DNA from: Raillietiella orientalis | Lineage: Eukaryota | Reading direction: 5' to 3' | DNA: 64,000 nucleotides | NCBI GenBank assembly: GCA_036172245.1 | Contig: JAYWIR010000031.1 | Location: forward strand, 1,860,001 to 1,924,000 | Shown here: positions 1 through 63,320 of the stretch, piece after piece | Position numbering within the stretch: the stretch's first letter is position 1 | How the letters are laid out: each line of letters opens with the position of its first letter | Translations under genes and position numbers: made by a program | The notes under the pieces: generated by a model | What the model was told of the DNA's origin: nothing | The model's database searches: none | Seen by the model: the letters and a program-made list of their open reading frames with translations, nothing else

Positions 1-744
1 ATGATGGAAATCTTTCAGGACTCTTCTGTTTTGCTGTTTTCCTTCCAGCTTTTTTTTTTTTGGTTCGCTAAGTACTCAAGAACTGTTCGCCTAGGAGCTC
101 ACGAGACCCTTTAACTCGAGGTCCATGCTACCCGAGGCTGCGTGTAACTTTTCCAGTTAAAGGACAGCCCCTTAGGGATCACTCTATAAATCCAGGAAGG
201 CGCCGGAGGAAGGAATGCGTTCTTCTTACGGTTGGAAGAGAACCCCGAAGGCAACCCTCGTCATGGTTGTCTCCGAAGGGAACCCCGTAGAGAACCTCTT
301 CCTTATTACCTCCAGGGGGATCGCTCCCCATTTTTCCTACAAAGGAAATCCGGAAAGAATTCTCTCCTGGAATTTCTGATCCACAGGATCCCCGCAAGGG
401 AATTTCTACTTATTTTTTCCTCCCGTGAAGAGAACCCTAAAGGGACGCTTACAAATTTCTCTAAAAGACGCTTCCTCGAAGGGAGCAGAGCACTTGACAC
501 TCTGGAGAGGTATCAATCCACTCTGGAGGCATCCATGGTAGTAGATGGACAGTCAAAGAGAACCCACTCCTTTAATTCCTGAAAGGACCCCTAAGGGTCA
601 ACTTCCAGTCCCGGCCACTCAACGGGGGCATCCGGTTTTCGGTTTCCACCGGTGCTGCACCCGAAGCCCGTGGGCCAACCAACGTCATCTTGCGGGAGGA
701 ACTCGAAACCCACGACGCTCCACCTCCCCATTTCTCGGCCTTGA
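1..744 (-). mobile_element. Body and 3' part of the long structured SINE-like element (copy A); continues past the window start
   Basis: The reverse complement shares blocks with 25960-26650, 12810-13615 and 62470-63320 (CAGGAATT/CAAGGAG, GGGTTCTCTTCA, TTCCTGGATT.ATAG.GTG, CTTAGCGAACCAAAA). Confidence 0.8.
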
Positions 745-2013
745 TCCTTTATTTTCACCCGGTCACGCCGTGGAGTTCCTTGGAAAAAAAATATTTACAA
801 AAAAACAAATCAAATAAGATACAAAATGCCCGTCTTCGTAGTGGCTTTACATGATCACGAAGAAGGGAAAAACCGCCTCGGAGGCGCTGCTTCGCGCGAA
901 CAGCTCCATCGGTGGGGCCCGCACACGAGGCGTGGGGGGAGGGGTAAACTAAAACAAAAGAAAAAAACAAACACAACAGTTCAGTTCGAAATTTGTGTTG
1001 GAAAGACCACAGATTTCTTCCTGGAGTCCACAGCATCCTCTGCAGGATGTCGACAACTTCCTCCTTCTGTTGGCCATCTTATCGTCTTCCTCGTGAAGGA
1101 GCACACAATTGCCATGACCTCCACTCGCCTCTTTTTGCGCAACCGCGATCCCACGAGGGCAGCACGGAGCTACAAGAGAAGCTGCAGGCGACATCCAGTC
1201 GCGAGAGAAGAGGCGCCATCCATAGGGAGTGGAAGGACCGCAGCGGAGCGTTCCCAGCACTCAGGAGAGCAACGACACAATCCAGTAAGAGGTGCGGGAA
1301 CGTTTCCCGTTCTCCTCACCTGGCACACTCTGGGGCTACGCTCCTCCTCGTCCACTGGTGGACTCGTGTGCTGCGTGGGATCACCCGGTGCAAGGACTGC
1401 GATGCCCAGTCCTGTCCCTTCAGGGGAAGCGTGAAGCCGTCCAGAAACACTGGCAGAGTCTGTACCTCTTCTAAGGGAATATCCAGAAGCTCCGTCGAGC
1501 GGAGAATTCCTCTGGGGTGGGCGGCGGGGGTGCATGCATCACCCAGTTGAATCGCCGTCCAGCATTCCAGCTGCCTCTTCTCGCCCGCGATCTCGCAGGC
1601 TACTTTCATCTCGCGAGGCCATCGCTACGTCCACCTCGTTGGATGGTGATGAGCGTGGCTGCAAGTGGGGTGCCTTGCGCTCAGGTGGCCTTCCTTGGGT
1701 AGTCCATGATTTCCTGCAGCGAGCGTAGTTGGAGGATCGCAGGCATGGCGATGGCTCGTGCTGTTTCTTTTCGCCCACGCCTGAACAGCTCCCTGTTTCC
1801 AGGCACTGCGGTTGGCGTGGCTGCGCGAAATCCACCTATCAACCTGGACCAAGGCAGCCATTTTCCGGTGTTGGTACTCTCATCGGGGCAGCTCTCGCTG
1901 GCCATGCACGAGGAACGTACCGAGTTCCTCGCCGCCGGCTGCTCGCTTGGCGAAGAGTTTGGCTGGGACGCATCAATGGATAGTCGCTAGGGCTAATCTT
2001 CTACGCTGGAGCT
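426..2013. repeat. Left arm of a 1.59-kb near-identical inverted duplication (partner 24691-26278)
   Basis: Position x pairs with 26704-x, and the ORF track gives the same peptides on opposite strands (for example 545..817+ and 25887..26159-). I saw substitutions only near 462, 1137 and 1352. Confidence 0.97.
745..2013 (-). mobile_element. 5'-truncated copy of the L1/Tx1-like LINE (ORF2 C-terminus with zinc finger, and 3' UTR)
   Basis: Reverse complement of 24691-25959; contains the ECAR*GERETFPHLLLDC zf-RVT-like motif and the T-rich 3' UTR with AATAAA. Confidence 0.88.
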
Positions 2014-2115
2014 TACGATCCATCCTCTCCAGCTTCGATTTTTTACGGGTATTGGAACCCGCGACGCTTGACACCTCGCTCTGATACCGTAGCTACACGA
2101 CCACCAACGTGGGTC
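2014..2115 (-). mobile_element. tRNA-like head of SINE copy A, separated from its body by the LINE fragment
   Basis: The reverse complement GACCCACGTTGGTGGTCGTGTAGCTACGGT...GCGTCGCGGGTTCCAATACCCG aligns with the heads at 12724 and 62395, including a B-box-like GGTTC(C/G)AAT. Confidence 0.75.
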
Positions 2116-12100: not shown

Positions 12101-12723
12101 GTGGAAATGAGATGCTCTTTGTTACAGTTGCTTTCATCCACAGAATTCTCCCATGAAGGACTAGTCGGAAAGGCAGGATTTCTTATTTCCAGCTCGCATT
12201 CTCCCTTGACGTCATTCCCATCGAGGAGTCGTCCACTCTGTGCTCATTTCTCTCATCCCGACGTGTTCTCCTCTTAAGTGGGATGCTCTCCCTGCCTGCT
12301 TGGCTGCTCCCGCTAGCTAGGTACTGTCTGCAAACCACGTCCAGAATCAGAGTCAAGATCTAGCTATTCCCCGACATGGTCCCGGACGACGCAACTCAGA
12401 AAGGACCAAAGGATAGTCCTGTTAGAAATGGGAGGCTCTTTAGGTACACGGGGGGAGGGAACAGGGGAAGGAATATCTGTGAAACTCCCAGGAAACTCTT
12501 CGCACTCGGGTCACATCCATTGAACCTTCTCCGAACTTTCCGTTGCAGATCCACAAAGGGAGAGATGCATCCTCCTTGCTTGAGCCACGCATTCCGAAGA
12601 AACCGGCCTTGTGGCGAACTACAGCTACGTCAGCAGACCCGGCCAGTGGGCCACCGGAACGATCAGAAGGACACCGCCATAAAAAGGAATGACTGCTGCT
12701 TTCAGGCTCCACCGAACCCTCTG

Positions 12724-13615
12724 GCCCGCGTTGGCAACCGTGTGGCTGCGGTCTGCTTGGATGGCACCAAGAGCCGTGGATTCGAATCCCGCCCGGATCG
12801 GCGGATCGACGCCGAGAACAGGGGATGGGTCATAGGTTCCAAGTCCTCCCGCAAGGTGACCCTGGTTGGCCTATTCGGATGCCGCAATGAAATGGAAGCA
12901 GCCAAATGGATGTTCCTGTTGACTGGCAGGATGGGAAGCCGACCCTTCGGGACCCTTCCGGGAATCAAAGAGTACTTCGGGGTTCCTCTCCCCTTGTGAA
13001 AATGGAGGCATTTTCCCTTCCTTGTGGTGGACCCTCCATCGAGTACCATGGAGCTGGTTGATACCCCCTCTGGGAGAGTTGCCTCTCCAGAGTGTCAAGG
13101 AGTGCGCTGCTCCCTTGGGAAGCGACCCTTCAGAGAAATAGGGAAGCGTTCCTTGGGGTTCTCTTCAGAGGAGCACCAACAAGGAGAGGCTCCCTTGCGG
13201 GTTCCCTACGGAAAGAAAATTCCAGGATCGGATCCTTTTCGGTCCCCTTTGGAGGAGAAAATGAGGAGCATCCCCTTTGGGGGAATGCACTCCGTGTTTG
13301 GAATGCACTCCACTGCTTTGTATAGAAACCTCAGCAGAGTTCCTGGAACTCTCTGGGGGGTGGAAATGGAATTCTGATACTCCTTTGGAGAGTCCCTCAG
13401 GAGAAAATAAGCAAGAGGTGACTCCCCTTGGGTTCCCTCCCAAACCTGAGAGGAACAAACTCCTCCTGTCGGAGCCCATCCTGGACTCTTAGGGTGGTCT
13501 CTACGGGGTTACTGCCTATAACTTGAAAAGTTGGCACTCACCCTCGGGTGGCGTGGACAGTGCTAAAGGGCTTCATGAGCACCTAGGCGAAGGGTTCTTC
13601 AGCACTTGGTGAATT
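12724..13615 (+). mobile_element. Long structured SINE-like element (copy B) with tRNA-like head; 3' tail missing
   Basis: B box GGATTCGAATCCC at 12778-12790 and an anticodon-like hairpin CTTGG-ATGGCA-CCAAG; the body is homologous to copies A, C and D. Confidence 0.8.
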
Positions 13616-13619
13616 TCAC

Positions 13620-14780
13620 CCTCTGTGAAGGACATCCGAAGAATCGTCTGCAGGATAACCGACTGGTGGACTGGAGGCTTCGCTCACTGAGAGCCATCTA
13701 GCACGCTGGTCTTCCGAGCGAAAATGAAGAGCAATCAGACGTTCAGCGAGCAGCACGGAGGATGCCAACGCACCAGGGGGTTTCAGGAGTGTTGGGTCTT
13801 CCGGGCAGATCGATGTCTGTAGTCCTGCGGCGTGTGACCGTGATGTGCCAAGGCACATCCCGATCCCTAGTGGCGAACGAAGAGGGGACGTTCCAGCGAC
13901 TCCGCGTCTTTGGACGACGGGTTCCAGAGCATGCAGGCAGCGAGCTCAGATCACATTGCAAGGCGCTCTGAAGAAATGGCGTCATCGGGATAGTGGTCAT
14001 CCCGTGCCGGGTGGAAAAAAGGGACAAGGGGTGACCACGGATGCTTTAGACAAGAGTGAATTCTTGGGAATCCACTGAGGAAACCCAGAGCATGAAAAAT
14101 TGGAGTGCGGGTTCAATGGTGGAGATCTCAGTCCACGCTCTCAGGTTGAACTTCTCTCTAAAAGTGGAGTGTTTTTGGCGCCGTGCCAACCTGCAGTATT
14201 TCAGTATCCAGAAAGAATCTGCGTTGTTTGAAACTCTTCCCTGCAAGTGAGGTGACCAGAGCAAACTCCGTTCACAGCGGCTGACCCCAGCTCTGATCTC
14301 AGCTCTCCTGCCTTAGAAATGGCAGGCTCCAACAAAAGACTTGAATGCCAAACTCACCGAGGAACAAGAGAGAAATTATTCAGCTGCTTGGTCTACTTGG
14401 TTTTGGAAAGGAAGGGTTCCCTTACCAAGAAGAAACGGGAACCGTCATCATGGAGTTGGTCATTCATCTTTTCGAGAATGCGCTCGAAGGCGAACATCGC
14501 CATCCAGGAAGGAAAGAATCCTCGAATGAATGAAGAGGATGGAGAGCCAGAGAGGAGGGACTTAGACAATCACCCCTTCTTTTACAGCCTCGAACTGGGA
14601 TGCACCAGTATCACTCCGTTCCCAGACCTCCTTCGTAGCGTCCTCCGCCCTCTCTTCCTCAAGTTCCCGCTTCTCATCTGAATTTCAGTAGCTACATGAA
14701 AGGGCAGAATCTCTGTTTCCCACCTGAAGGAAGCAGGGAAGAGACTGTAGACTGTCGGCCTCACTGAGAAAGGAACGCTT
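13620..14780 (-). mobile_element. Degenerate LINE reverse transcriptase fragment
   Basis: Minus-strand L*KKG*LSK and LWLSILFIHSRILS (LYKKGD...WRPISL...KIL-like) near 14520-14590, IRGHPLSLF (IRQGxPLS-like) near 14030 and YPDDAI (YADD-like) near 13985. Confidence 0.7.
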
Positions 14781-18100: not shown

Positions 18101-20847
18101 GCGTTGTCAGATCTTGCGGGGAATCCGGAGGCCACTGTCAACAGTGTCGATGATGCGAAGGCTGCTGACCAGTCCATGTGTGACTGATGAAATTTGCACC
18201 GGCAAAGACGAGTTCCCCTGTGGTTCTGCGGAACGTTCCTCGGGAATGCTTCGCAAAATCCGTCTGGCTCCGTTCTTAGAGACGTTCCGACAAAACGGGA
18301 AAAGGACGAAGCCAACAAAAGGCGAAGGAGATCTCCAGCTGACAATCCACGCAGCAGCTGCTCGCGAAAAGGATGGGCAGACACGCAGCCTCAGCAACGC
18401 AGCTTCCTCAGATGTAACGAACTTCAGCCGCTCCTATCGAAGTGTCCGACTTTACTTCAAAGAAGATAACAAGCTTATCCCTCAAGGTTTGGCAGCACCA
18501 AGGAGCATCCTGAATCTTGAGAACCAAAGGAGCCCATTGCAGTAAATCAGCCCGATGCTGTCACACAGGGGAAAGGAGGAATTCGCGAAAGAAATCGTGC
18601 AATCTTCCGAAGATTGGTACGCCGGATTCCTGAGGGAAAACCAAATGGTTCGGGAAGTCCTTGGATGAGTTACTCTCCTTGAGAACTCGAAAATTTTCCA
18701 TAGCGTCGTCATCCACTGCTGGAACTGATTTTCAGCAACATTGCGGGAGAATCCCTCGTAGACCTTCGTATCTGCCTCGATTGAGACTAAATGATTTCTG
18801 CTGAGGGATGTTTGTCTGCCGCGTCTTTCCGGAGTAGGTCGGACATGATTCCCAAGATCCAAATACGCTGCAGCCGCAGTAAAGAGCTGCAACGTCAACT
18901 GGACTCTGAAAGAAAAGCCGAAACGCGCGCCCGACCTTTGTTAATCAGGCCACTTGTGCCATGAAACAGAATGCTCTTGCTTGAGATGGGGGGAGAAGGA
19001 AAAAATGGATGCCTCCTGTGCGATCCATGTGCGTAATCGCAAATGATCAGTCCTTCGCAGGAATTAGAGCTCAGCCTCCAGTGTACGGACACGTATTTGG
19101 TACGCGTGCGGCTTGCCTCGCGGAACGCACGGAAGGAAAATTCGGATGCTTCAGAAGATTTCCGCCCAGGTCCCACAGAAAGACACTTGAAAAAATTCCA
19201 GCCCTATGCGAAGACTGAATCTGAACTTCATCGAGATGAGGGGATTAAAGTTAGAGTCTTTCTCTTTCGTCTTCACACCATTTGGAGCACAAAGGTTGAA
19301 ATTTTGCATCCTTTTTTTTTTTTTTTTTCTTCATTTCAATACGATTGAGTTATTCATTTTCTGCGTAAACTAATAAATTACGGCTGGAAGTAGATAACAT
19401 TTAACAAAAGATGCTGTTGGACGACGACTGATCACAAAGAAGTTGCTTTGACTCCTGCCAATAAATTGTTTCATCGTGATGACCTTTGTCAGCTTCTCAG
19501 TTCGAAAGAAGGAGCCATCAAGATCGGACTCTCTGCGAGCAGCGTTGTGTGATTCCAGCATGTGGTGATCTTTCGTCACGAAAAGGCCGCTGTGCAAATG
19601 TCCGATGCTAAAGACTGAAAACTTCCAGTTCAGTAGGTCGTAGACCACCTACGCCGAGGAAAACGAGAAGAAAATGCAGTGCCCCAGAACCAGAACCAGT
19701 ACACAAAGTACGCTGTCTGGCTGCTCTACCACCTGATTGCTTTGTGAGTTTGATCAAAAGCATTTCAATGCTTCTTATGCATTCAAAAGGGTTGCGTGGA
19801 AAGATGAGATGCGCCGCATCGGAATAAAGGACGAAAGGGCAAAGTTCACAAGTGCATCTGAGGTCCTCCGTCATTGAATTATCGCGTTCTTCGCTGTCTG
19901 TCGAAAATGTAGGATGCTGAGAACTAGATTTTACACAGCTGGGTCAGAACATTCACTCCACTTCTCGAGGTACACAGATAAATTGGCGCAGCAAGTCTTC
20001 AGCGGCATCATGTAGCAGCTCAAGGCAGATCACCATCGCCTTCTGAGGTACGGCCGGTCAGGAAACGGATTTTTTCCTTCGAAGACCTCCATTACCGATT
20101 TCCTTTCCGCTCTCCAGCAGCTCTAGTGGAGCCTTAGTGGAGGAGTCCTAACACTGAACGGTTGAAAAGAGTGTGGATATTATGGATCTGGGAAATGTAT
20201 TGGAACTGGAAAGAGTGGAGGGAAGCACCACGGCGTCAGCGTTCTCTGACCACTGTTTTTTATGGGTGCTCTGTGTGGATTCTTCTGAAACTCAGTGCGA
20301 GGAGAAAACAGCCGGACGCGAGAGGATCGGCAATGTGTTTCTCTGGGTACAGTCACTGAGGAATAGGAGGAGGACACAAAAAGCAGCTTAAAGGAGTTGA
20401 GAGTAACAGAGCTGGGTCCAGGAGAGTTACCGGTTTTCTGCTGAAAGAGAGAAAGCGGCAAATAAGCCAGAAGTGGGAAACGTTGTGAGGGGCAACACTT
20501 GTATGAAAATGAATTCAGTTGATGTGGGGATGAATACTTTCCATTTCCAACACCAAGCGGATGCTGAACGTCTAAAGATAGATGAAGAAATCGTCCATGC
20601 CTCTTTTCATTTTTTCCGAAGAGGTGGAAACTCTTTGGCGAGAAATCTCCGTGCCTAGGTGGCTGCTCTAAAATTCTTGACGAAGACGATAGCATAGACC
20701 TTGACGAAGGATTCTCCAGAGTGATTCCATTGTAAAGGACGGACACGCTTGGCGACACTGCGCGAATTTCAATATGTATTTTTTACAAATTTGCGTGGCG
20801 ATTGTGGACGTGGTGGCGTGATAGCAGAAACACCACTCATCTCCGCT

Positions 20848-22230
20848 ATGGAGGGAGGAGGTGATGTGGAGACTTCACCACCAACCCCGATGGAGATGGA
20901 AGCTATCGCTTCCGAGGATGGAGGAAGTCCCAGGAATACAAGGACGTGGGGCTAAGTGGTCTTGCTTGCCACGACCGTTACCCAGAAACGGGGACTTATG
21001 TGGCCCAGAATTACTGGCCTGCCCTGTTTTACATGGTAGGCCCATTAGGTTTGGCGTCCGTTGCGCGTTCTTTCGCGGAGGGGTTACGCCACGCGAATGG
21101 CGAAAAGGGAGACCTCGAAGGACTCTCTGTGGTGAGCGGGGGTGGAAAGTCATTGAGCTGATCTGCAAAGAGGCCGCTCTCGTTTAGCAACTTCTGAACA
21201 CCTCAATAACCATCGAAGGCAAGAGCCCTAAACGGCAGAGCACTCAGTAATGGACCACTACTGAGTGGTTCGCCACGAGGTAGTCCACCTGCGAGCTTTA
21301 CGACTGCAGATGGACGAGCCTGAAGTCCTCCGTCAGCTCAAAGAATATGAGACGTTCCACGCGTACTGGGCTTGTTCCCCAGACATGAGAGACTGTTTAG
21401 CAGCTTGGCTGCAGCACACGTGACCGTAGACGAAGAAAAGCAGCTTCCCTACCGTATGGAAATGGGGGACTTTACGTTGATCTCTGGTTCCCCGGAAAAC
21501 CAAGATTATGCAGCCATTGCAATAAAACCGGACACCTGAAGAGATGTCCGGAAATTATTTGCCATGACTGCGGACTGAAGATCCTCATGAAGTTTCTGTG
21601 CCCAAAAAGACTCATCTGCGCAAAACCGGAAAAGAGGCAGCGCGAGGAAAAGAGCGGAAGCAAAGGGAGGAAGGAAAGGTGTCCACCACACCCAAATCAT
21701 CGAAACCAACTTCCAAAAGAGGGAAAGAAATGACCAATGGAGCAAGATGGCAAGTGGTAACATCAAAAAAGAACGAACCCATGGAGACAGTGATCGACGA
21801 GCCGATCGCTAGCGGCGAAGGTTGTCGCAAGGCTTCTGCCATCTCTTCGGAGAAGGTGGTGACGCCAACACCTTCGAAAATAAAGGCCGTGAGGCGTTCC
21901 GCTCGAGGGGTACCTCAGCATGGCTTCCGACTCCGACCTGGATAAGATAAGCACCGGCGGAGAAGCGGAAGCAACGGGAACCGCCTCAAAGAGCCCCAAA
22001 GCCCCGAGGAAGAATGCAGTCCTCCAGGGAAAGGATGCATCCGCTCCGGAAGCGGAGAGGATGCAAGGTGATTCCCGAGATCCTCCTCGGAAAGGATCCT
22101 CCACTACGGAAGAAGAACAAAGGTGAAGGAGGAGGAGAAGAAGAGCCCTCTCTTCTTCTCCATCCTTCTACCTCCTCCATCACTGACGACCGCCCTGCCT
22201 GAGCAGCAGGTGGGAACCGCAGAACTGACA
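20848..22230 (+). pseudogene. LINE ORF1 (RRM-like region plus CCHC zinc knuckles), frameshifted
   Basis: VVHLRALRLQMDEPEVLRQLKEY near 21280 and WFPGKPRLCSHCNKTGHLKRCPEIICHDCG at about 21485-21575, followed by a basic low-complexity tail. Confidence 0.8.
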
Positions 22231-25200
22231 TGCCCGCAGTAACACGTGCGCTTGGCTCCTGCCGGCGACTTCGTATAGCCTGTTGGAATGTCAACGGGCT
22301 CGTGAAGGCAGCAGGAGACGGGACGCAGCCACCTCCTTGCAACCGTTCGACCTGGTGCTTCCGCAACAGATCCACAAGATCTCTGTGGAAAAAATCCAGG
22401 AAACTGAAGCGATCGCGGGCGGCAAGCTGCATTGGTGTTGCGGCTCGACGCACTCGTGCGGGATCGCCTTTTTTGCTCAAACCAACCGTTGACAGCGAGG
22501 AATGAGACGTTCAGATCGACGAGTAATGTTGGGAAGCACAATTTATGCTCAAGTGGTCCGAATCGATCGACCTCGTCTTGACCAACACATGCGCACCAAA
22601 TGGCTCCAACAAGCGGGGGGCGAAGACCAGATTCTTAAAAGCCCTGAAGCGCGATCGATTGGTGGAAGCAGGTGAGCAGAGCGCCCACCCGACAGGAAGA
22701 TTTCAGCATCTTCCTGCTCTCAGGAATGGCTAGCTGGTCGCTAGCCATTCCTGAGAGCTCGTTAACCAGCTCAACCTGGTTAGCGAGTTGTGTGCAGCAA
22801 TGCACAGGTGCAACTTGTTGACTGGGGTCATCGGCATGAAAGGCAGCATCGATCACATCTTCCTCGACGACCACCTGCTCTCGCGGATCAGTTATCGTGG
22901 AAAGGAGCGAACGACGTTGTCGGACGACCGCCGAATTGAGCTGAAAGTACTCACAAGCGGGAAAGGTTCCCCTTCCAATGCGTGGAGTCTACCAAGGGAT
23001 TGACTCCATCTCCCGGAGGCTGAGGAACACTTCCGTAACTTCCTGCGAGATGTCAATGTGCAACAACTCGAAGGCTGGGACGAGACGGAGCGCTCGGTTC
23101 GAGAGTTCTGCACGAGCTTCCCTGTGGATCGCCTCCCCTCCGGGTTTGGTGAGGGAATGAGCAACGAGCGCGCGTATCTCCATGCTAGGTGTTTGCAGAA
23201 AAGGTCAGACGTTCGTCATCTGGTCGAGATGAAGGCCACCGATGAGAAACAAACCTGGCAGTCGGGGACGACCAGCTTAACGGACGACCAGGACTGAAAG
23301 CTCTCATCCCCGGAAGAAGTACGAAGCATCGAGCGACAATTTTACTCCTCCCTGTACTCGAGAGCACCACTGGACCGCAACTTCGCGCAGTTGTTGCTGT
23401 CTGAAGCATTCCCGCGATCGGAAAGTCGGGAACTCTCTTGTGCGAGCCTTTCGCGACGGGAGAGATCATCTCCGCCATCGGCAAACTCAAGATGAGGAAA
23501 GCGCCAGGGGAGTGCGGTCTGCCGAACGACTCTGACCAGTGTTTCGTGGCAGAGCTGACCCCACTGGTACATCGGATTTGCGCGCTGATTCGGGAGACAG
23601 ACGAGCGGGGTGCCCGCCTTCTTCAGATCAGCAAGAGTATGTCTCCTTCCAATAGCAGGAAACCTCCGCAACATAAGCAATTGGAGTCCGATTACCGTGA
23701 TCAACACGGACGCCAAGCTGATCTCGAAGCTATGGACTGAGCGCCTGAGGCGGTTGACGGAAAGTTCATCAGCCCGGAACTGACGTACGCTGTTCCCGGA
23801 CGAAACTGGCTCGAATTGCAATAAAGGGTTGCGCCAGTAGGCCAAAGGAATCCGGAATTCGGAGATGGTCAGGGATTAGAAGGCTACGTTAAGACGGAGG
23901 CATAAGGAGTCCTTGCGGTCGCAGTCGATTTGCAAAAGACATTCGGCTGAGTAGACCAGCAGCTCGTTTTGGAACTTCTGGAACGCATGGAATGTCCCCC
24001 TGGCCTACCTGTGCTCCTGCGGGAGCAAGGAGATGATCAACATTCTTTTCAGAGGCGGACACGTGTGCGGCACGGGATTCGGCAAGCAGACAGCCTGAGC
24101 CCTTTGCTCTCATCGTCTACTCGAAGTTGATGCTGAGAGCGTACAGGACAACTCTTGCTAACCTTCCCAGCCCGTGCCCCAGCATGCCTGCCGTGTTGGC
24201 CTAAGCCGACGATCTTCTACTCCTGTTACGCGTGTCAGCCCCGGCAGCATCGCTCGAGGAATCCCTCGAGCTGATCAGCCGGGGATGCGTATAAACAGGG
24301 GTCGGGCGTAGGTGACTGTGCTTCCTATTGGTGCATCGTGGGTAGGGCAACAGGACATTCCGTTTGGGAATCCTCGCGATCAGGTGCTTTAATTACCTGG
24401 GAGTCCCGTTGGGGGACTTCTGAGCAAAGATTGTTCGGTTTTCTCCAGAAGGTAGAATCAGGTCTCAGCCCGTTCCTGGATGGCAAGTTTCTCTTGTTGG
24501 ATCGAGCTGTTCTGTGGAACACATTCGTGGCTCCCCTCCTCCGACGCCTGCTTTTCCTTTGCTCCGCTCGGAAGTGTAAAAAAGAGGACCGAGGACCTTC
24601 TGTGGAAAGCCTTCTGGGTAACTCAGAGGTCCTGGGTTCACTTGAAAGCTTGTGCGCACCGCATCAAAACGGCAGAGAGGCTGGAACGTCAGCTCCAGCG
24701 TAGAAGATTAGCCCTAGCGACTATCCATTGATGCGTCCCAGCCAAACTCTTCGCCAAGCGAGCAGCCGGCGGCGAGGAACTCGGTACGTTCCTCGTGCAT
24801 GGCCAGCGAGAGCTGCCCCGATGAGAGTACCAACACCGGAAAATGGCTGCCTTGGTCCAGGTTGATAGGTGGATTTCGCGCAGCCACGCCAACCGCAGTG
24901 CCTGGAAACAGGGAGCTGTTCAGGCGTGGGCGAAAAGAAACAGCACGAGCCATCGCCATGCCTGCGATCCTCCAACTACGCTCGCTGCAGGAAATCATGG
25001 ACTACCCAAGGAAGGCCACCTGAGCGCAAGGCACCCCACTTGCAGCCACGCTCATCACCATCCAACGAGGTGGACGTAGCGATGGCCTCGCGAGATGAAA
25101 GTAGCCTGCGAGATCGCGGGCGAGAAGAGGCAGCTGGAATGCTGGACGGCGATTCAACTGGGTGATGCATGCACCCCCGCCGCCCACCCCAGAGGAATTC

Positions 25201-25700
25201 TCCGCTCGACGGAGCTTCTGGATATTCCCTTAGAAGAGGTACAGACTCTGCCAGTGTTTCTGGACGGCTTCACGCTTCCCCTGAAGGGACAGGACTGGGC
25301 ATCGCAGTCCTTGCACCGGGTGATCCCACGCAGCACACGAGTCCACCAGTGAACGAGGAGGAGCGTAGCCCCAGAGTGTGCCAGGTGAGGAGAACGGGAA
25401 ACGTTCCCGCACCTCTTACTGGATTGTGTCGTTGCTCTCCTGAGTGCTGGGAACGCTCCGCTGCGGTCCTTCCACTCCCTATGGATGGCGCCTCTTCTCT
25501 CGCGACTGGATGTCGCCTGCAGCTTCTCTTGTAGCTCCGTGCTGCCCTCGTGGGATCGCGGTTGCTCAAAAAGAGGCGAGTGGAGGTCATGGCAATTGTG
25601 TGCTCCTTCACGAGGAAGACGATAAGATGGCCAACAGAAGGAGGAAGTTGTCGACATCCTGCAGAGGATGCTGTGGACTCCAGGAAGAAATCTGTGGTCT
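22230..25700 (+). pseudogene. LINE ORF2 (AP endonuclease, reverse transcriptase, zf-RVT), disrupted
   Basis: LRIACWNVNGL (22270), KIQET, LTNTCAPN, GSIDHIFL, KAPGECGLP (23498), NWSPITVINTDAKLISK (23679), VAVDLQKTFG, GIRQADSLSP (24075), LA*ADD (24196-24213, YADD tyrosine replaced by TAA), NYLGVP (24391), ECAR*GERETFPHLLLDC (about 25375). Confidence 0.93.
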
Positions 25701-26278
25701 TTCCAACACAAATTTCGAACTGAACTGTTGTGTTTGTTTTTTTCTTTTGTTTTAGTTTACCCCTCCCCCCACGCCTCGTGTGCGGGCCCCACCGATGGAG
25801 CTGTTCGCGCGAAGCAGCGCCTCCGAGGCGGTTTTTCCCTTCTTCGTGATCATGTAAAGCCACTACGAAGACGGGCATTTTGTATCTTATTTGATTTGTT
25901 TTTTTGTAAATATTTTTTTTCCAAGGAACTCCACGGCGTGACCGGGTGAAAATAAAGGATCAAGGCCGAGAAATGGGGAGGTGGAGCGTCGTGGGTTTCG
26001 AGTTCCTCCCGCAAGATGACGTTGGTTGGCCCACGGGCTTCGGGTGCAGCACCGGTGGAAACCGAAAACCGGATGCCCCCGTTGAGTGGCCGGGACTGGA
26101 AGTTGACCCTTAGGGGTCCTTTCAGGAATTAAAGGAGTGGGTTCTCTTTGACTGTCCATCTACTACCATGGATGCCTCCAGAGTGGATTGATACCTCTCC
26201 AGAGTGTCAAGTGCTCTGCTCCCTTCGAGGAAGCGTCTTTTGGAGAAATTTGTAAGCGTCCCTTTAGGGTTCTCTTCA
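24691..26278. repeat. Right arm of the 1.59-kb inverted duplication (partner 426-2013)
   Basis: Direct reverse-complement comparison with 426-2013. Confidence 0.97.
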
Positions 26279-26720
26279 GTGAGGTAACAATGAGCGACCT
26301 GCTTTGGAGGATCCCTATATAGAGAATAAGAAAGAGGTTCCCTTGGGAGACAACCAGGGAGAAAGTTCCCTTCGAGGTTCCCTCCCAACCGAAAGAGGAA
26401 CGCACTCCTTCCTCCGAAGCCTTCCTGGATTCATAGGGTGGTCCCTACAGGGTCGCCCCCTAAATTGAAGAGCAGCACGCACCCTTGTGTGGTGTGGATG
26501 GTGTGAAGGAGCCCCAAAGGAGTGATCCCCTAGGCGAAACGGTTCTTTAACACTTAGCGAAAGAAAAAAAAGGAAACCTTAAAAAAAGAACAAAAGCTGG
26601 AAGGAAGACAGGAAAACAGAAGAGCCCAAAAGGATTTCCGTCATCCTAGGCCAGTAGTAGCAATCGCCACGCGAGGTCGCTACTGGCCTTATCAAACAAA
26701 AACAAAAAAAAAAAAAATGA
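25960..26720 (+). mobile_element. Structured SINE-like body (copy C), headless and fused to the LINE 3' end, ending in a stem-loop and poly(A)
   Basis: Homologous to copies B and D from just after their B boxes. A 10-bp stem AGGCCAGTAG (26648-26657) / CTACTGGCCT (26680-26689) is followed by an A-rich tail. Confidence 0.8.
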
Positions 26721-27130
26721 AAAATCATTAGAATGTGATGAAACTCCAAGAGCACATTTGTCAGCATCTTCCCTGATCGTCCGCATGATGATCGGTTTTG
26801 CTAATCTGCGGCCAACGCTCTTCACTGGAAGAGAAGGAAAACTAGATGTATCGTCTGTTATGAGAAAAACAAATTATAGACGATGTTTTCTAATAAAGCG
26901 ACGAAAAGAAACGGTGGATTTTCAAATTTATAAGGTGAATTTATATGCATGTAGCACTTTGATTGATTGTGTTTTCAAAAAAAAAAAAAAGGAAAAATAG
27001 GACGATTCCAGAGCTTAGACGTTCTCTCGCCATCCTGAATATTTTTTTCATTATTTCGACCGATTGCGTTTGTGCATGAGAAATTTTAGGCCCTCTTCGC
27101 AAGGGTTCTCGGTGTCTCGATGTCTTTCTC

Positions 27131-27730
27131 TGACGCAAGTGAACGAGCATCGCGTGAGCAACGTGAACACACTGGATGCTGGAAGCCCCTGCACCGAGAG
27201 CAATTAAAGAAAACGAAGAACACCTGCGTGACCTCGGCAGAGAACAAGAATCCTTGGTCTCCTCTCGGATAGTTCAGGTGCCAAAGCTGGCGTGGAAGAA
27301 ATCGAAAACATCCAGTGTCACACCATAGCGTAGGTGGTGCATTCCGAAGCCATTTTTCCTCCGAATGCCCCACTCGTGTCAGTATTCTCTGCAACAGAGT
27401 ATACATAATACTATGATTTTATTAAATATATTATAATCGGATATGTCGTGTTTGCGATTTATGCTATGGGCATGTGTTTTATCCCACTGGGTCGGAAGAA
27501 TCTGGAAAAGAACCCGGGGATTCACAACATGAGTGTAAAGAAGAAAGAATAGGTCACTCTTCGCCATGCGATGAACCAGCCCGCCGTGGTCCCACCTGAA
27601 TAATGAAGACTGCACCAAGGAACGCTTTCTCGTCTCATCTGAGAGGACGACTTTGCTTCGGGGACTTTGCTCTGATGCAAGTGAATGAACATTTCGTGAG
27701 CGGCGTGAACACACTGGATGCTGGAAGCAA
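27131..27730 (+). repeat. About 57-bp diverged direct repeat (27131-27187 and 27673-27728), possibly ankyrin-like coding repeats
   Basis: TGA.GCAAGTGAA.GA.CAT..CGTGAGC..CGTGAACACACTGGATGCTGGAAGC occurs twice; it translates as S(N/G)VNTLDAGS, and as ...KLPL in the second copy. Confidence 0.7.
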
Positions 27731-36850: not shown

Positions 36851-38298
36851 TCGAATGCCCTCTCTCGAACTTTGCAACTCTCTTCTTCCTCTAATTGATG
36901 CCCTAGTAATTTGCTGTTGTTGTTACGTGAAAACTCCCGGTTGCCCTCAACGGGAAGAAATGTATCAACAAGACTGAAGAGCTATGTCGTCCATGAAGCT
37001 CTTCAAGTCGAAAAAATGGTCGAAAGTAAAGATGCAAGTAACAAAAGTAGAAGTAACTGAAATGCAACCTTTCGGATGCAGAAAAATTTTAGTACGAGAT
37101 TCGGTTCCTAGAGGCCGATCCCTACCAGCTTTGCACGAGACCTGACGTGCCTTCAGCGACCTTCAAAAGCCGTGAGGATTTGAACCGAAACAAAGAGAAA
37201 CCATGTACCCGTTATTCAGGAATCGCTGCTGCGTTCACACAAAAGAGTGCGCGCATTTTCTGAAGAGACGCGAATAACTGGCGCCTTAAAGCATGCAAAC
37301 GCGGACAGCAAAACACAAACACCAGATTAGTATCGTCTTGAGAATCATCGAACAGGCAGGAGATGTTGATTTGCTGAAAAGATGTTCCTATGTGTGATGC
37401 TGCACGTAGAATCAGGGGTACGACCCGATACAAAGAGAGGTCACTTTAGCAAATACTCGCTGGTTCCAAAGTGCATCGAGAAACTTTCAGAGCAAGCGAC
37501 GGGGCCAAACGATCCCAGTACCCTCTAGTGACGAACCGCTACATCATTCGGCATCCTTCCTCCGGAGTCTGCAGACGAGAGCATCCACTCATGAGGTTTG
37601 CTGCTGAAATTAGACCCGGGTTTAGTCTAGTATTTTGTCGTTGCTGTTGGTGACGCCGTTGCAGCACCGGATCAATCTTTTCTGATTAACTAATGCAGTA
37701 TTCCTCATACTGCAGGGAAATGAGAGCGCGAAATAAGAAACTGTCCTTGTTCAGCTGTTTCCGCCACTGATTATGTCTTCATTCTTCATCTCGGAATCCA
37801 CATTTGCTGCCTCGAACTTTCACTTATTTAGCATCGATGATCCCCGGTTGGTATTTCTGAAAATGATCCTCTGTTTGATTCCTCGAATCACGCCTTAGTT
37901 GCATGATTTCCCCAGGTCTTCGCTTCGTTTGGAGAAAAAAAAGGGAGAGATTTTTCTGCTCAAAGTCGCAAGATCACTTCTGAAAATCAAGCAAAGGATT
38001 CCCGTGTTTCTAAATTTTTGAATTTCACGAACGACCGATGATATCAAATGAACTGTGGATTCATCTTGGATTTGCAAACACGAAATGTTTAAAAGCACCC
38101 ATTCTTCCGCCTGCAAAGGCACCCTCCCTAAACCACCGACGTGCTCTGCACGAAGCATATCGCTCCTGGTTCCCATGGATTTTTCTCCGTACTTGGAACC
38201 GTCCGAGAGAATTCGGACTTTCAATTTTATGCAGTTTTCCTTAACAGAGTATCTTCAGATGCATGGGAAGTTTTCGGTTTTCCGTTAGCTAATAAGAA

Positions 38299-39406
38299 GG
38301 AACTTTCGATCCTCCGGAGTCCCTGGCTACAAGTTCCTCATGGTTTGTGGTATTTCACGCTCCTGGAGGCACACACGGGGGGCGACGAGTAGCTGAAGGC
38401 GCTAGGCGGTGGCGGGGGCGTACCACGTCCTCGGCGGCCGAATTGGGAATCTGGGAGACCTTTTGATCGCTTCTTTCGCGGCGGTCGAGAGGTTTCCGAA
38501 ATTCCCTCCTCTTTCGAGGTCAGCTGATCCGATCCGACAGCAGCGGCTTCGTGGTGTTCTTTGTCCGACCAGTTTCGTTCCCGCAGGAGGCACTTTGCCC
38601 CTTTTCCAGCTGAAAGATGAGAAGTCGAGGGCGCAATTGCCGAAATGCGAGCGCTTTTGCGGCGCGGAATCCCGTTCGAGTTGATGGGAAGATAATCCCA
38701 TTCCTGGTGATGACACAGTGATGATGAGCCGATTCGGTCTTCTTCGATTCGGGCAGCAGTCTCTGCAAGGACATTCAGGGAAGAATTTAAATCTCCCGAT
38801 ATGCATTTCCATCGATCCGAGGACTGCACCGCAGCATGGCACCCTTTCCTCCTTTCTAATCTGTTTTCGTCCCTTGAAGAAAAAAAAAAGGAAAAAGAAA
38901 GAAAGAGAAAATAATGTAGTGTGAATCCTTGCGTTTATCCCTGAACTCGCTGCCGAAAGCACTTCCCTTTGTTTTGCAAGCCCAAGCTTTTTTCGTGGAC
39001 CTGAATTTCCTAACCAAAAGGCTGGCTTCAGGCTTCCGTACCATGACTGTGACCGTATCTCGGAAATGCAGTGGTGATGGCGTTCACTTGTTGCCTATTT
39101 ATTTATTTATTCGTGCGTTTTAGGGAAAGCAAGGAGGAGAGAAAAAGTCACCTTTCTGCACGGTACAAAATCTGTCGCGCAAAGAACACCACGAAGCCGC
39201 TGCTGTCGCATCGGGTCAGCTGACCTCGAAAGAGGCGAGCTAAAGGTTTCCCAGAGTCCCAATTCGACCGCCGAGGACGTGGTACGCCCCCGCCCCCGCC
39301 TAGCGCCTTCAGCTACTCATCGCCCTCCATGTGTGCCTCCAGGAGCGTGAAATACCATAAATCATCAGCAACTTATGATCAGGGCCTCCGGAGAATCAAA
39401 AGTTCC
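38299..39406. repeat. Foldback with inverted arms 38299-38569 and 39174-39406 around a spacer of about 605 bp
   Basis: For example GTAGCTGAAGGCGCTAGGCGG.GGCGGGGGCGTACCACGTCCTCGGCGG matches the reverse complement of about 39268-39316. The right arm lacks about 38 bp between two TCTTTCG repeats. Confidence 0.92.
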
Positions 39407-40829
39407 GTCCCAGCGTCGAAACGGCCGTTGGCAACCACTGGCATTCCCTGCGATATCCATAAATGAATTTTTTTTTTTTTCTGGAGCAGCGTCTCAAGGT
39501 TTCCGACGGACACATCCTAAGAAAAACAATCCAACAGTCCGCACAATCCAAGGATTCGATTTGCACAAACGATGTTCCTCTGAGTTATGCAAATAGAACT
39601 TTTGATTGAAGTTCGAGTGGTGGGATGCAAGGAGGAAGATTGTTCGAGAGTCTGCAGAGACCTACGTGGCGTTAATGTGACACGACCGCTGATTTCTGGG
39701 AGCAATGCGTTCAACACTTTCACTCAGGAGCCCCCGAGCTCCATCATAGATGGCGCGCGTTTTCATAAGGCCATGGAGGAAGTCGCCACTACTCCGTGAT
39801 TTCCAAGCTTCCAAGCTTCTGCTTCGTTTGGTGGATCTGGCGACCTGAAGGACGACAGTTGCTGACCATGCCTAGGAAACGAGCAGCCTGCAGCCCTTTC
39901 GCTCAAGAGAGTTCGGAAGCGCACGCATCAGACGATCGCCGAGTCAGACACGCTCCAGCATTTCCGGCTGGTCACTTTGGCTGCAAATGGGTGTGGGTTT
40001 CTCCGGACCAATCAATGCCCAACCAAACAGGCAGTCTTGCGAACTGACCCGAGTGAGACTCTTTCCTACGTCACTTCAAAGGCAGCGCCTTCTTTCTTGA
40101 TTGTAAGAGGTTAGTTTATAAGAGGTGAATGATGGCCTCTTTTTTTTTTTTTCTTTCTTTGTAAAAAAAAACAAAGAGCAAAGATAGGAAGGCTGGAAGC
40201 TGCTTCTCGAAATGCTGAGACTATTATGTCTTCAAAGATAGCAGATCATGAAACGTTCTAAAAGCATGAGCGCACTTGCGGTCTCTCCATCCTAAGGGGA
40301 GAAATAGAAACTGCTTGCTGGAAGCGAAGCAAAATCATCAGTGATCATCGGTTGATCGGCTGATCAAGATGCAACCAGTTGACTTCTTGTACTGCACAGA
40401 TGTTGCATCCTTGCAAGGTTGCGCCTCCACGTCCTAACGAACGTGCGTGCATAGCCCTGATGTCTGGGTTCGGGCACACGATGTCTCGTACTGTGTGATA
40501 CATTAATGCATACACACTCTGGATGTAAACGTATGAATATAGATCTACGCGTGACATTTCAGACACGCACACGTATGTACTGGGTTGGTGTTGCAGAACC
40601 GCTCATCGATATGTAGAGCGCCCGTTTGAGCATGCTTACGTGATCCAATTACTCCCTTTGACTAGGAGGGCTAAGTGCATTCTCATGGCGTCCATCACTG
40701 TTTCCAAAGAGCCAGCGAGAGATCATGAAGTGCTTAGTGAATAACAACACAACAGGTGTTCCAGCAGAACAACTGTCCGAACAAACCAATTGTAGGGAAC
40801 ACCTGTTGCGTTGTTATTCACTCAGCTTC

Positions 40830-60900: not shown

Positions 60901-62394
60901 CACTCCTTCTCTGCAGAAGAAGAAAGGAAGGAAGGGGGGAGCGGAATTCCTGACATTTCTTCCCCTTTCTCAATCGCCAAGACGAGTCTCGTCGCGCGGC
61001 AACTTCTGCTCAAAGTTCTCTTTCCAGGGTTCCCAACTTCATCTGTTTCGGTTACGAGGGTGGTATTCCCTCCCCCCTTCCCCATCTGGGCTTCCCCCAA
61101 CAAATTAGAGATGCTCAGTGGATGTAGTAGGGAATTTCCTCTTTCCCATGCAGTCAGCAACTTGACGGAGTGGACGCAGACATTTGTGACAACTCATTAC
61201 ATAGAGGATGCTGAGTGAGTAGCAGCACAGGAAGAGAAGAGATTGTTTGAAAGGGGAGGGGGGGGGAGGTGATTACTCTTTCCGGACGAGATTTCTTTCG
61301 TCTTTTGTCTGTCGTTTTTTTTCTTCTTCTTCTTCTTCCCTTTTTTTCTCACCTCCTCCCCTGCACGAAAGAGATGACAGAAGTCGCGAAGAGATTTCCA
61401 GCGTTCGGAACGCCCATCATCAGTCATCTTCGTGAACTGCACGTTCAGGAAAATATCCGGTGGGCAAAAAAAAAACACACGCACAGTTCTGCCAGTCTCT
61501 TTCTTTCTTCTTGTTCCGAGGTCCGGGAGATTCGACCTCTCTTGGTTGGCGTCGTCTTCTCTTCTCGGTTCGCAGACGCTTCCGGAACCAGCTGTGCACC
61601 CACCTACACACGCTGCACTCCGGAACCTCCGCCTCGTGAACCCTCTCTCTTCCTGCGAGCGCGTGCGCTCGCCGCCTGCTTAACGCAGGGGGAGAAGCTG
61701 CCGGTGCCTCGCGAGCAGGAGACGACGACTCCGCAGAAGAACAACCGGGAGACGAGGTGATGGTTCGCTCCGCGCCGCTTAGCGACGATGCGAGGGAGGG
61801 AGCTCGGGTTCCAGAGGAGGGGTGGGGAGTAGACAGGGATCACGAGGCAGGAGCGAGGGACGGCGGCAGTTCCCGTTTGCTGGCTTCGCCGGGTTGCACT
61901 GGCCGTCGTCGCGCGAACATGAGGCGCGAGGTGCGTTCTCCTCTCCCCGCGATTACCTGGCAAAGTCGTGCGCCCCAAAGCACAAAGTCGACCCCCTCTG
62001 CCGACAACTGCTAATCTGTCGGCTGGAGTCTGCTTTCCGCTGGGAACGTGCCAAGCCAGCAATTGGCCCACGGGGATGCTCGAGAAAGCCTCGCGCTGCG
62101 TGCGCTCTTTCTGTGGCGCCAGCGGACGCACGTGGTCACTCGCAAGGGAAGGGAGTCGCTTTTTTTCGCAATCTGGAGATGGTTTTTCAGATTTCCAAAG
62201 CTTCTAACGGACGACTGCTATTTATCTCTTACTAGATGGCCATTTGGGGACTTCTGCAGAGGACTATCCCGCGTGAAGCACGCGGTACGTTCCTCGCCAT
62301 GAGCCATCATCGTCTACCATCATCTCCCGTAGGGCGAAGATGGTGTCTTTCCATTATATACGGCGAAGGGATGATTAGCAGCAGGACAAGATTA

Positions 62395-63320
62395 GCCCGC
62401 GTCGGAGGCTTTGTGGTTAAGGTTTCCGCGCGTGGCACCATGCGTCGCGGGTTCGAATACTTCGGCAGATAACTGACGCCACTGCGTCGTTGGGTTCCGA
62501 GTTTCTCCTGCAATGGCGCTGATTGGCTTAATCATTCGGGCGTGGCACCGGTGGTGCTTTAAGCCGGAGGCCCCTGCTGAAGGCCCGAACAGTCGGAGTC
62601 GACCTTCGAGTCCTTCCAGGAATCAAGGAGTGGGGAGTTCCCCCTCCGGTCGTACAACGGAGAGCGGACCCCCCACATCGGGGGGACCCTTCCGGTTTCA
62701 AGATGGAGCAGGAGCCTTCACAGGCACCTCTCCAGTTGTTCAAAGGAGCGGACCCCCCTGTTGCGGGAGGGACCCTCCGAGTCGTCGCCTCTTCACAGAG
62801 TGCAAGGAAGCAAGCGAGAGCGATTCCCCTGCGGGAATCTACAACGCCTCTTCTGAATTTCGGAAGCATCCCTTCGGGTTCTCTTCAGAGGAGTGAACAG
62901 GAGCGTTTCCCTTGCGGGTTCCCTCCGGAGAAGAAATTCCCACTAGCGGATCCTTTCCGGGTTCCCTCCGGAGAAGATGAAATGGAGAGGACGTTCCAGA
63001 GGGGGCCCTCCGGAGAGAATGAGGAAGGAGATTCCCTTCTGGGGTCCCCTTCGAAGACAACCAGAGTGCGATCCCCCTCCCCAAACGTGAGAGGAACGGA
63101 CTCCGAGTCCTTCCTGGATTCATAGGGTGGAACCCCCCTTCCGGGGTGCCCCTATCTTGAAGAACAACACGCATTCTCCGCGGGTGACGTGGAACCGTGT
63201 TAGAGAGCCACGTGCGCCGCGAGGCACGCGACCGGCTCTTGAGGTACTTAGCGAACCAAAAAGAAAAGAGTAGCAGGAAAGAACTGTAATTGAACTGAAA
63301 GAGGAAACCATCACCTGAAG
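62395..63320 (+). mobile_element. Long structured SINE-like element (copy D), the most complete copy
   Basis: A-box-like GGCTTTGTGGTTAAGG (62407), B-box-like GGTTCGAATAC (62450), repeated hairpin modules, and the tail CTTAGCGAACCAAAAAG; homologous to copies A-C. Confidence 0.82.

Follow-up and report, generated by a model that had tools for sequence, protein, structure and literature searches.

Four diverged repeats, here called A to D, lie in a window of 64,000 nucleotides from Raillietiella orientalis and raise the question of what kind of element carries a body of most of a kilobase behind a short 5' head. An earlier sequence-only reading had taken the head for a tRNA and the body for a conserved, modular structured RNA, and had proposed a Pol III transcript of ~0.9 kb that would be either a functional ncRNA that had become mobile or a SINE of a class not known before. 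SINEs derived from tRNAs are usually a few hundred nucleotides long and carry internal Pol III A and B boxes. In our analysis, the family is instead very probably an old and decayed LINE/SINE partnership, in which a head was joined to the ~0.8-kb 3' UTR of an L1-like LINE, so that its members appear to be SINE-like partners of a known type rather than a new structured RNA. The observations behind this reading are the homology of the copies, the contiguity of the body with a reverse transcriptase region, the 5' end shared by B and D, their target-site duplications and the tandem build of the body.

The surrounding DNA is eukaryote-like in composition (52% GC, CpG observed/expected 0.87). No protein-coding gene was detectable in the window: of its 721 ORFs with a length of 55 aa or more, 300 were searched against Pfam and returned three sub-threshold matches, and none of the window ORFs has a convincing codon periodicity. 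The window may therefore belong to a large genome and represent one of its gene-poor regions. Between 54000 and 60000, the GC content reaches 64-69% and ORFs of up to 689 aa occur on both strands; since they show neither a codon-position bias nor a Pfam match, this segment is probably non-coding GC-rich DNA. Two further repeats were noted, a ~274-bp inverted repeat (38296-38569 and 39174-39409, 77% identity, arms ~600 bp apart), which may be another mobile element of the foldback or terminal-inverted-repeat type, and a 62-bp direct repeat (27125-27186 and 27667-27728, 87% identity). About 9 kb of the window (1-2115, 12716-13625, ~21.5-26.7 kb and 62377-63282) would be explained by the one LINE/SINE family.

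Copies of the family and the LINE among them

A family profile run with nhmmer over the 64-kb window recovered four bodies (A, B, C and D) and the separate head of A at 2113-2009(-); among its 11 matches at E<=10, none of the others lies below E 1e-4 except a reverse-strand self-match in copy B. With D as the query, BLASTN returned A, B and C at 67-79% identity, and the relations seen in a self-BLAST agree. All four copies of the sequence-only reading thus exist, and 8 of the 8 motif coordinates that it quoted are exact, but C is headless, and D, which does start at 62395, ends at ~63268 rather than at 63320. Pairwise identities among B, D and A/C are 62-69%, with a 3' domain that lacks strong conservation; as A and C are not independent, only about three lineages are represented. 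A-rich tails are present in A, C and D and missing from B. The ORFs overlapping B and D gave no Pfam family. Pattern scans for copies outside the window pointed to eight metagenome loci and three loci in prokaryote genomes, which we regard as chance matches because 0 of these 11 align past the 19-22-nt motif. The features of the family are compiled in Table 1.

Table 1. Positions of the copies, their parts and the LINE within the window
Feature	Position	Strand	Remarks
Degraded LINE, apparently L1-like	21509-26725	+	3' end is copy C; no 5' end found
CCHC knuckle	21509-21547	+	LINE ORF1 region
Endonuclease-like motif WNVNGL	22284	+	regex
Endonuclease-like motif SIDHI	22845	+	regex
ORF2 motif KAPGECG	23498	+	regex
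ORF2 motif NTDAKL	23703	+	regex
ORF2 motif DLQKTFG	23927	+	regex
ORF2 motif GIRQADSLSP	24074	+	regex
ORF2 motif ADDL	24205	+	regex
ORF2 motif YLGV	24394	+	regex
C..C..H..C motif CAR*GERETFPHLLLDC	25377-25427	+	regex; also at 1327(-); 0.01 expected
Reverse-transcriptase region	23277-24932	+	with frameshifts and stops; crosses 24675, where the tract in common with A begins
Copy C body, putative LINE 3' UTR	25957-26561	+	ends in CTTAGCGAA at 26553-26561
C A-rich stretch	26562-26595	+	
C extension	26596-26692	+	
C second poly(A)	26693-26725	+	
Copy D	62395-63268	+	head, putatively LINE-3'UTR-derived body, CTTAGCGAA at 63247-63255 and A-rich tail at 63256-63268; 874 nt
D head, ~76 nt	62395-62470	+	homologous to the A and B heads; unlike the LINE sequence upstream of the body
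D B-box-like motif GGTTCGAATAC	62450-62460	+	element +56..66; 1 mismatch to GGTTCGAATCC; T-arm-like hairpin remnant
D central array, degenerate ~42-43-nt tandem units	62630-63100	+	core (R)TTCCCTTNNGGGTTCCCTCCGGAGA
D 5' target-site duplication AGCAGCAGGACAAGA	62377-62391	+	3 nt before the head
D 3' target-site duplication AGTAGCAGGAAAGA	63269-63282	+	adjoins the A-rich tail
Copy B	12724-13617	+	SINE-like; head-body junction as in D; no A-rich tail; 894 nt
B 5' target-site duplication ACCCTCTG	12716-12723	+	adjoins the head; partner at 13618-13625, 4 nt after ..GGTGAAT; 8/8 identical
A head	2030-2115	-	nhmmer E 1.8e-6; joined directly to LINE ORF2 sequence
Copy A	64-2029	-	LINE ORF2 C-terminal part 2029-748 and putative 3' UTR body 747-64
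A poly(A)	61-50	-	followed by a further 49 nt common with C, reaching the window edge

The bodies of B and D align with C 25957-26561, on the same strand as the LINE reverse transcriptase upstream of it. This reverse transcriptase was recognized through a metagenomic protein of 619 aa (P0004), which matches residues 3-71 of the ORF at 23405-23737 (62% identity, E 2.3e-14, exhaustive phmmer search of 1.84 billion proteins). P0004 carries an RVT_1 domain (4.7e-24), and its best matches of solved structure are human LINE-1 ORF2p (8C8J, 8UW3 and 8SXT, 7e-40 to 5e-39), with R2 at 1e-11 to 7e-17. Searched back against the window with tblastn, it covers 23277-24932(+) at E 3e-34 and 2.8e-32. Its own relatives reach at most 30% identity over most of their length and at most 32% over partial alignments, and many of them combine Exo_endo_phos, RVT_1 and zf-RVT domains. 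A profile of these relatives, built from the 48 of 84 retrieved sequences with at least 850 aa, gave collinear matches at 23589-23780 (1e-10), 23405-23737 (3.6e-5) and 23951-24127 (0.004), and the distant relatives match only 23301-23807 (15 HSPs). A protein Atlas search yielded a weak RVT_1 lead (8 of the 30 matches listed, score 0.93). Further support comes from nine ORF2 motifs between 22284 and 25377(+), whose order and spacing are canonical and of which six are unique in the six-frame translation of the window; their regexes were composed after the translation had been read.

Direct searches with the window sequence were negative. Pfam found neither RVT_1 nor Exo_endo_phos in the window ORF pieces (38 of the 55 plus-strand ORF pieces scanned), a read-through with X at the stops gave nothing in Pfam and PDB searches, and neither PDB searches with three window pieces nor two word-index protein searches returned a match for the LINE, so that the reverse-transcriptase assignment is carried by P0004 and the profile. 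For the endonuclease domain, there is no Pfam, tblastn or profile match beyond the regex motifs, and the profile match in the zf-RVT region is weak (E 0.5). Within the LINE, the reverse transcriptase is the only statistically supported part, and we treat the endonuclease and the zinc motif, known from their motifs, as putative. Neither a target-site duplication nor a 5' end of the LINE was found. A scan of viral contigs with P0004 gave no locus, and a second candidate protein, P0005 (3919 aa), was dropped as it has no tblastn match to the window.

Since copy C directly continues the strand of the reverse transcriptase, with its body starting at 25957, we take it to be the 3' end of a degraded L1-like LINE and the body of the whole family to be the 3' UTR of this LINE. 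The LINE itself would belong to a deep and undescribed lineage, given that the nearest named relatives of P0004 share no more than 30% identity with it over most of their length; in public protein sets, this lineage is poorly represented, with one metagenomic protein as the nearest relative and the next at ~30% identity or less.

The body is built from repeated units: what the sequence-only reading called modular is a degenerate array of ~42-nt tandem units, of which each copy has 6-9 core motifs. The autocorrelation of D has its peaks at 43 and 83-86 nt and that of A at 40 and 83 nt, and a core of ~25 nt, followed with an iterated nhmmer motif, recurs seven times in D, nine times in B, seven times in A and six times in C. 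Core count and length vary together between the copies. Judging from this build, the body appears to be a tandem-repeat UTR with short palindromes.

Copies B and D share a further organization. Each consists of a ~76-nt head with a B-box-like motif, GGTTCGAAT, at +56..66 and of ~0.8 kb that corresponds to the putative LINE 3' UTR; the motif of B, GATTCGAATCC at 12779-12789, has the same offset as that of D. In the window as a whole, B-box-like motifs are not enriched (15 matches against 24.9 expected). B and D begin with the identical first base (GCCCGCG) and have one common head-body junction, but their flanks and target-site duplications differ, so that the fusion must have been copied at least twice, which is the behavior of a SINE. 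The duplication of D, AGYAGCAGGA(C)AAGA, has 13 of 15 matches and one gap, a score that 41 of 1000 shuffles reach anywhere in the flanks. With the common start, the B-box-like 11-mer and the duplications, the earlier description of a retroposed, non-coding and head-bearing family holds, and SINE-like is an apt term for it. The unusual length of this SINE-like partner comes from the complete, repeat-built 3' UTR of the LINE that it contains.

Copy A has another layout. Its head is joined at ~2030, inside ORF2, and is followed by 1.9 kb of the LINE 3' end; residues 494-584 of P0004 align to A 2032-1772(-) (tblastn, E 9.5e-9), and no LINE homology was found upstream of the head, beyond 2115. The sequence-only reading was correct that A has a head and a body, but the 1.3 kb between them is LINE ORF2 and no unrelated insertion. 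A and C share 1.62 kb at 99.3% identity (409-2029 against 26294-24675, inverted), while outside this tract their similarity, taken in windows of 60 columns, is 65-91%. The tract seems to go back to a gene conversion or a duplication, recent in either case, or to an effect of the assembly. Taken as a whole, the two copies are consistent with one source that had a 3' extension and with gene conversion or duplication as a later, recent event. An extension past the A-rich tail is found in A and C only and not in D or B, with 39 of 45 nt in common between the two (0 of 1000 shuffles). This sequence past the first A-rich tail (26596-26725 in C, which closes with a second run of 14 A, and 1-49 in A) looks like a 3' transduction or the extended 3' end of a subfamily.

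Origin of the head and of its junctions

All three heads (A, B and D) are homologous to one another (z 7.4-14.6; 14.6 for D against A and 11.0 for D against B). A fourth head upstream of C, suggested by a MAFFT alignment, was rejected, as 24560-24674 scores z ~0 against all three. The claim that the head is a tRNA is unproven. ARAGORN finds 0 tRNA genes in the window and makes inconsistent calls at relaxed thresholds, Rfam gives nothing at gathering score and no tRNA at E<=10 in either 1-kb windows or 92-95-nt head windows, and a majority head sequence built from all three is accepted by ARAGORN only when the threshold is set to 85%. The heads have no common fold either (z -2.1, -0.1 and -2.1); tRNA-like traces in them are a T-arm-like remnant, GCGGG-TTCGAAT-(A)CCCG, and the 5' GCCCGCG-T. 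No similarity was seen between the head and the part of the LINE that immediately precedes the body (25760-25956). The head is presumably foreign to the LINE.

The partnership could have worked as follows. An L1-like LINE would have had a 3' UTR of ~0.65-0.8 kb, made of degenerate ~42-nt palindromic units and closed by CTTAGCGAA and an A-rich tail. In B and D, a foreign head of ~76 nt would have been placed before this whole 3' UTR, and in A it would have been joined further upstream, in ORF2. Both an internal promoter, presumably for Pol III, and a constant start of transcription may have come with the head, and the LINE-derived 3' end may have let the ORF2 protein use the RNA in trans; target-primed reverse transcription in trans would then have left the target-site duplications. 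Elements of the L1 type are generally regarded as needing a poly(A) only, which speaks against this picture in that there is no obvious need for them to share a 3' UTR.

Other origins of the head have to be weighed against this. Copies A, B and D could be internal-deletion derivatives of the LINE, analogous to RIME/ingi and NARTc/L1Tc, and the head would then be the LINE's own 5' end with an internal promoter. That A has the head in ORF2 and that B and D have the same head at the 3' UTR, together with the fact that it is not recognisable as a tRNA, would suit this scenario, which we nevertheless hold to be unlikely: the 18500-22250 region upstream of the LINE ORF1 knuckle contains no head-like sequence (none by nhmmer; shuffles reach the scores of the heads in 31, 134 and 137 of 200 cases), although this test is weak, since the 5' end of the LINE copy is undefined and maybe truncated. 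To a similarly low degree, we credit the idea that the head is a non-tRNA small RNA of Pol III that was captured at least twice by template switching of the L1-like reverse transcriptase, in ORF2 in the case of A and at the 3' UTR start in that of B and D; one fusion would then have become a SINE of unusual length (0.88 kb), because this LINE lineage, in contrast to mammalian L1, would recognise its own 3' UTR, with the ~42-nt palindromic units serving as repeated ORF2p binding sites. That the fusions are nothing but template-switch chimeras, in which the reverse transcriptase left the LINE RNA for a small RNA of high abundance (cf. U6/L1) and from which no SINE family was amplified, is hardly credible: it would explain the two distinct junctions of A and B/D and why head homology in A stops ~70 nt in and gives way to an A run, and chimeras of this kind are known from U6/L1 and fungi (PMC4476161, PMC2104539), but B and D have a common junction with different duplications and flanks, i.e. 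the fusion was copied at least twice, so that template switching would account for the origin of the element and not replace the LINE/SINE partnership.

Foldability and covariation of the body

The proposal that prompted this analysis, a ~0.9-kb Pol III transcript whose conserved modular structure is under selection, is very improbable in the light of the folding and covariation tests. Several results seem to favor it. Copies fold better than dinucleotide shuffles (z -3.35 for D and -1.86 for B on the plus strand, 20 shuffles each), and the minimum free energy of the consensus lies below that of column-shuffled alignments, with z -2.9 (0 of 40) for four sequences and -3.0 (0 of 50) for three. 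A stem at 13533 in B and 63167 in D has two compensatory pairs between the copies, and D is devoid of T4 runs on its sense strand (0 in 866 nt; B has two). The last point is unremarkable, as only 1.2 such runs are expected.

The minus strand, however, folds equally well or better: z is -6.29 for D and -4.97 for B (20 dinucleotide shuffles each) and -4.5 (0 of 50) for the three-sequence alignment; for the four-sequence alignment, the minus strand has z +0.1 when scored against the null of the plus strand. There is therefore no strand-specific structural signal in these folds, as excess foldability is found on both strands and the single-sequence z is stronger on the minus strand, which argues for palindrome-rich DNA, inherited by the copies, rather than for a signal in one RNA strand.

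Covariation leads to the same picture. The sequence-only reading held that pairings are kept although the sequences diverge, but of the 96 cells of its stems 87.5% are paired, and shuffles reach 85.7% (112 of 500 do at least equally well). They contain four pairs with changes on both sides against 2.3 expected (52 of 500) and have a covariation score of 0.285 against 0.226 (21 of 500), and they thus stay within the range of the shuffles. Its long-range stem shows zero compensatory change and is expected by chance, given that D has 10 perfect 8-nt complements and shuffled D sequences yield 7.5±3.2. The arms of this stem in D are direct repeats of a near-palindrome that flanks the array (score 31 against 11.8±2.2, 0 of 500); the repeat is weaker in C (94 of 500) and absent from B. 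For the structure predicted by RNAalifold, covariation contributes -1.12 of -88.1 kcal/mol, and its 23 double-change pairs compare with 18.6±3.2 (at most 25) in 40 column-shuffled alignments. An excess of this structure over per-pair shuffles (0 of 500 and 1 of 500) was discarded, as that comparison is circular: RNAalifold had derived the structure from that very alignment, and the counts obtained with null alignments are similar. With four sequences from ~3 independent lineages, the power of these tests is low and the lack of covariation is itself weak evidence.

No Rfam family matches the body or the element. What look like conserved stems are probably palindromes and direct repeats that the copies, with a mutual divergence of 31-38%, have inherited, and the impression of long-range RNA structure would be accounted for by inherited tandem palindromes. 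The structured-RNA reading is thereby largely refuted. Structural constraint finds no support in covariation that stays within controls and in foldability that exceeds them on both strands, and the choice between a new SINE class and a mobilised ncRNA gives way to a body that appears as the 3' UTR of an L1-like LINE in the same window. Both results that, by its own account, would have spoken against the sequence-only reading were essentially obtained: covariation is not significant, and a LINE 3' UTR corresponds to the body from end to end, although the LINE is one that had not been described before.

Relation to known mobile elements

The practical value of these results is one of annotation, and they open no long-standing question. 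The LINE/SINE pair may be of modest interest for transposon taxonomy and, possibly, for the question of 3' UTR recognition by some L1-like elements.

In several respects, the window LINE resembles the L1 clade: its reverse transcriptase is closest, via P0004, to L1 ORF2p, the relatives of P0004 have the Exo_endo_phos, RVT_1 and zf-RVT combination, it ends in poly(A), and its motifs fit ORF2 in order and spacing. It differs in being heavily decayed, with the reverse transcriptase as the only part that is backed by alignment statistics.

The family can best be compared with SINEs whose partner is a LINE. Like these, it is non-coding, its 5' head bears a B-box-like motif whose offset is fixed, its 3' part is homologous to the 3' end of a LINE from the genome in which it resides, and it shows target-site duplications and an A-rich tail (in D; B is without it). 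Unlike them, its partner is L1-like, a clade that is usually regarded as poly(A)-only, and its head was not detected as tRNA, 5S or 7SL by ARAGORN and Rfam. The LINE part makes up ~90% of the element and comprises the whole ~0.8-kb 3' UTR instead of a tail of tens of nucleotides, and the total length is 0.87-0.89 kb (874 nt in D, 894 nt in B) instead of the usual few hundred nucleotides. The underlying model, in which SINEs obtain their 3' end from a partner LINE, is that of Ohshima and Okada (PMC3747384, PMC4176376).

Chimeras formed by LINE template switching, including U6/L1, are a second point of comparison (PMC4476161, PMC2104539, PMC11838501). They share with the family a 5' part that resembles a small RNA, a 5'-truncated LINE as 3' part and variable junctions (A versus B/D), and they differ in that here the B/D fusion was itself copied.

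The tandem build of the body recalls yet another group, the VNTR-composite retrotransposons SVA and LAVA. These are hominoid-specific and are transcribed by Pol II. They too are composite and non-autonomous elements with a central tandem array of varying unit number (PMC3287187, PMC4432496); by analogy, both they and the family described here would be mobilised in trans by machinery of the L1 type. Their parts, though, are unrelated to those of our copies, in which the array appears to have been inherited from the 3' UTR of a LINE.
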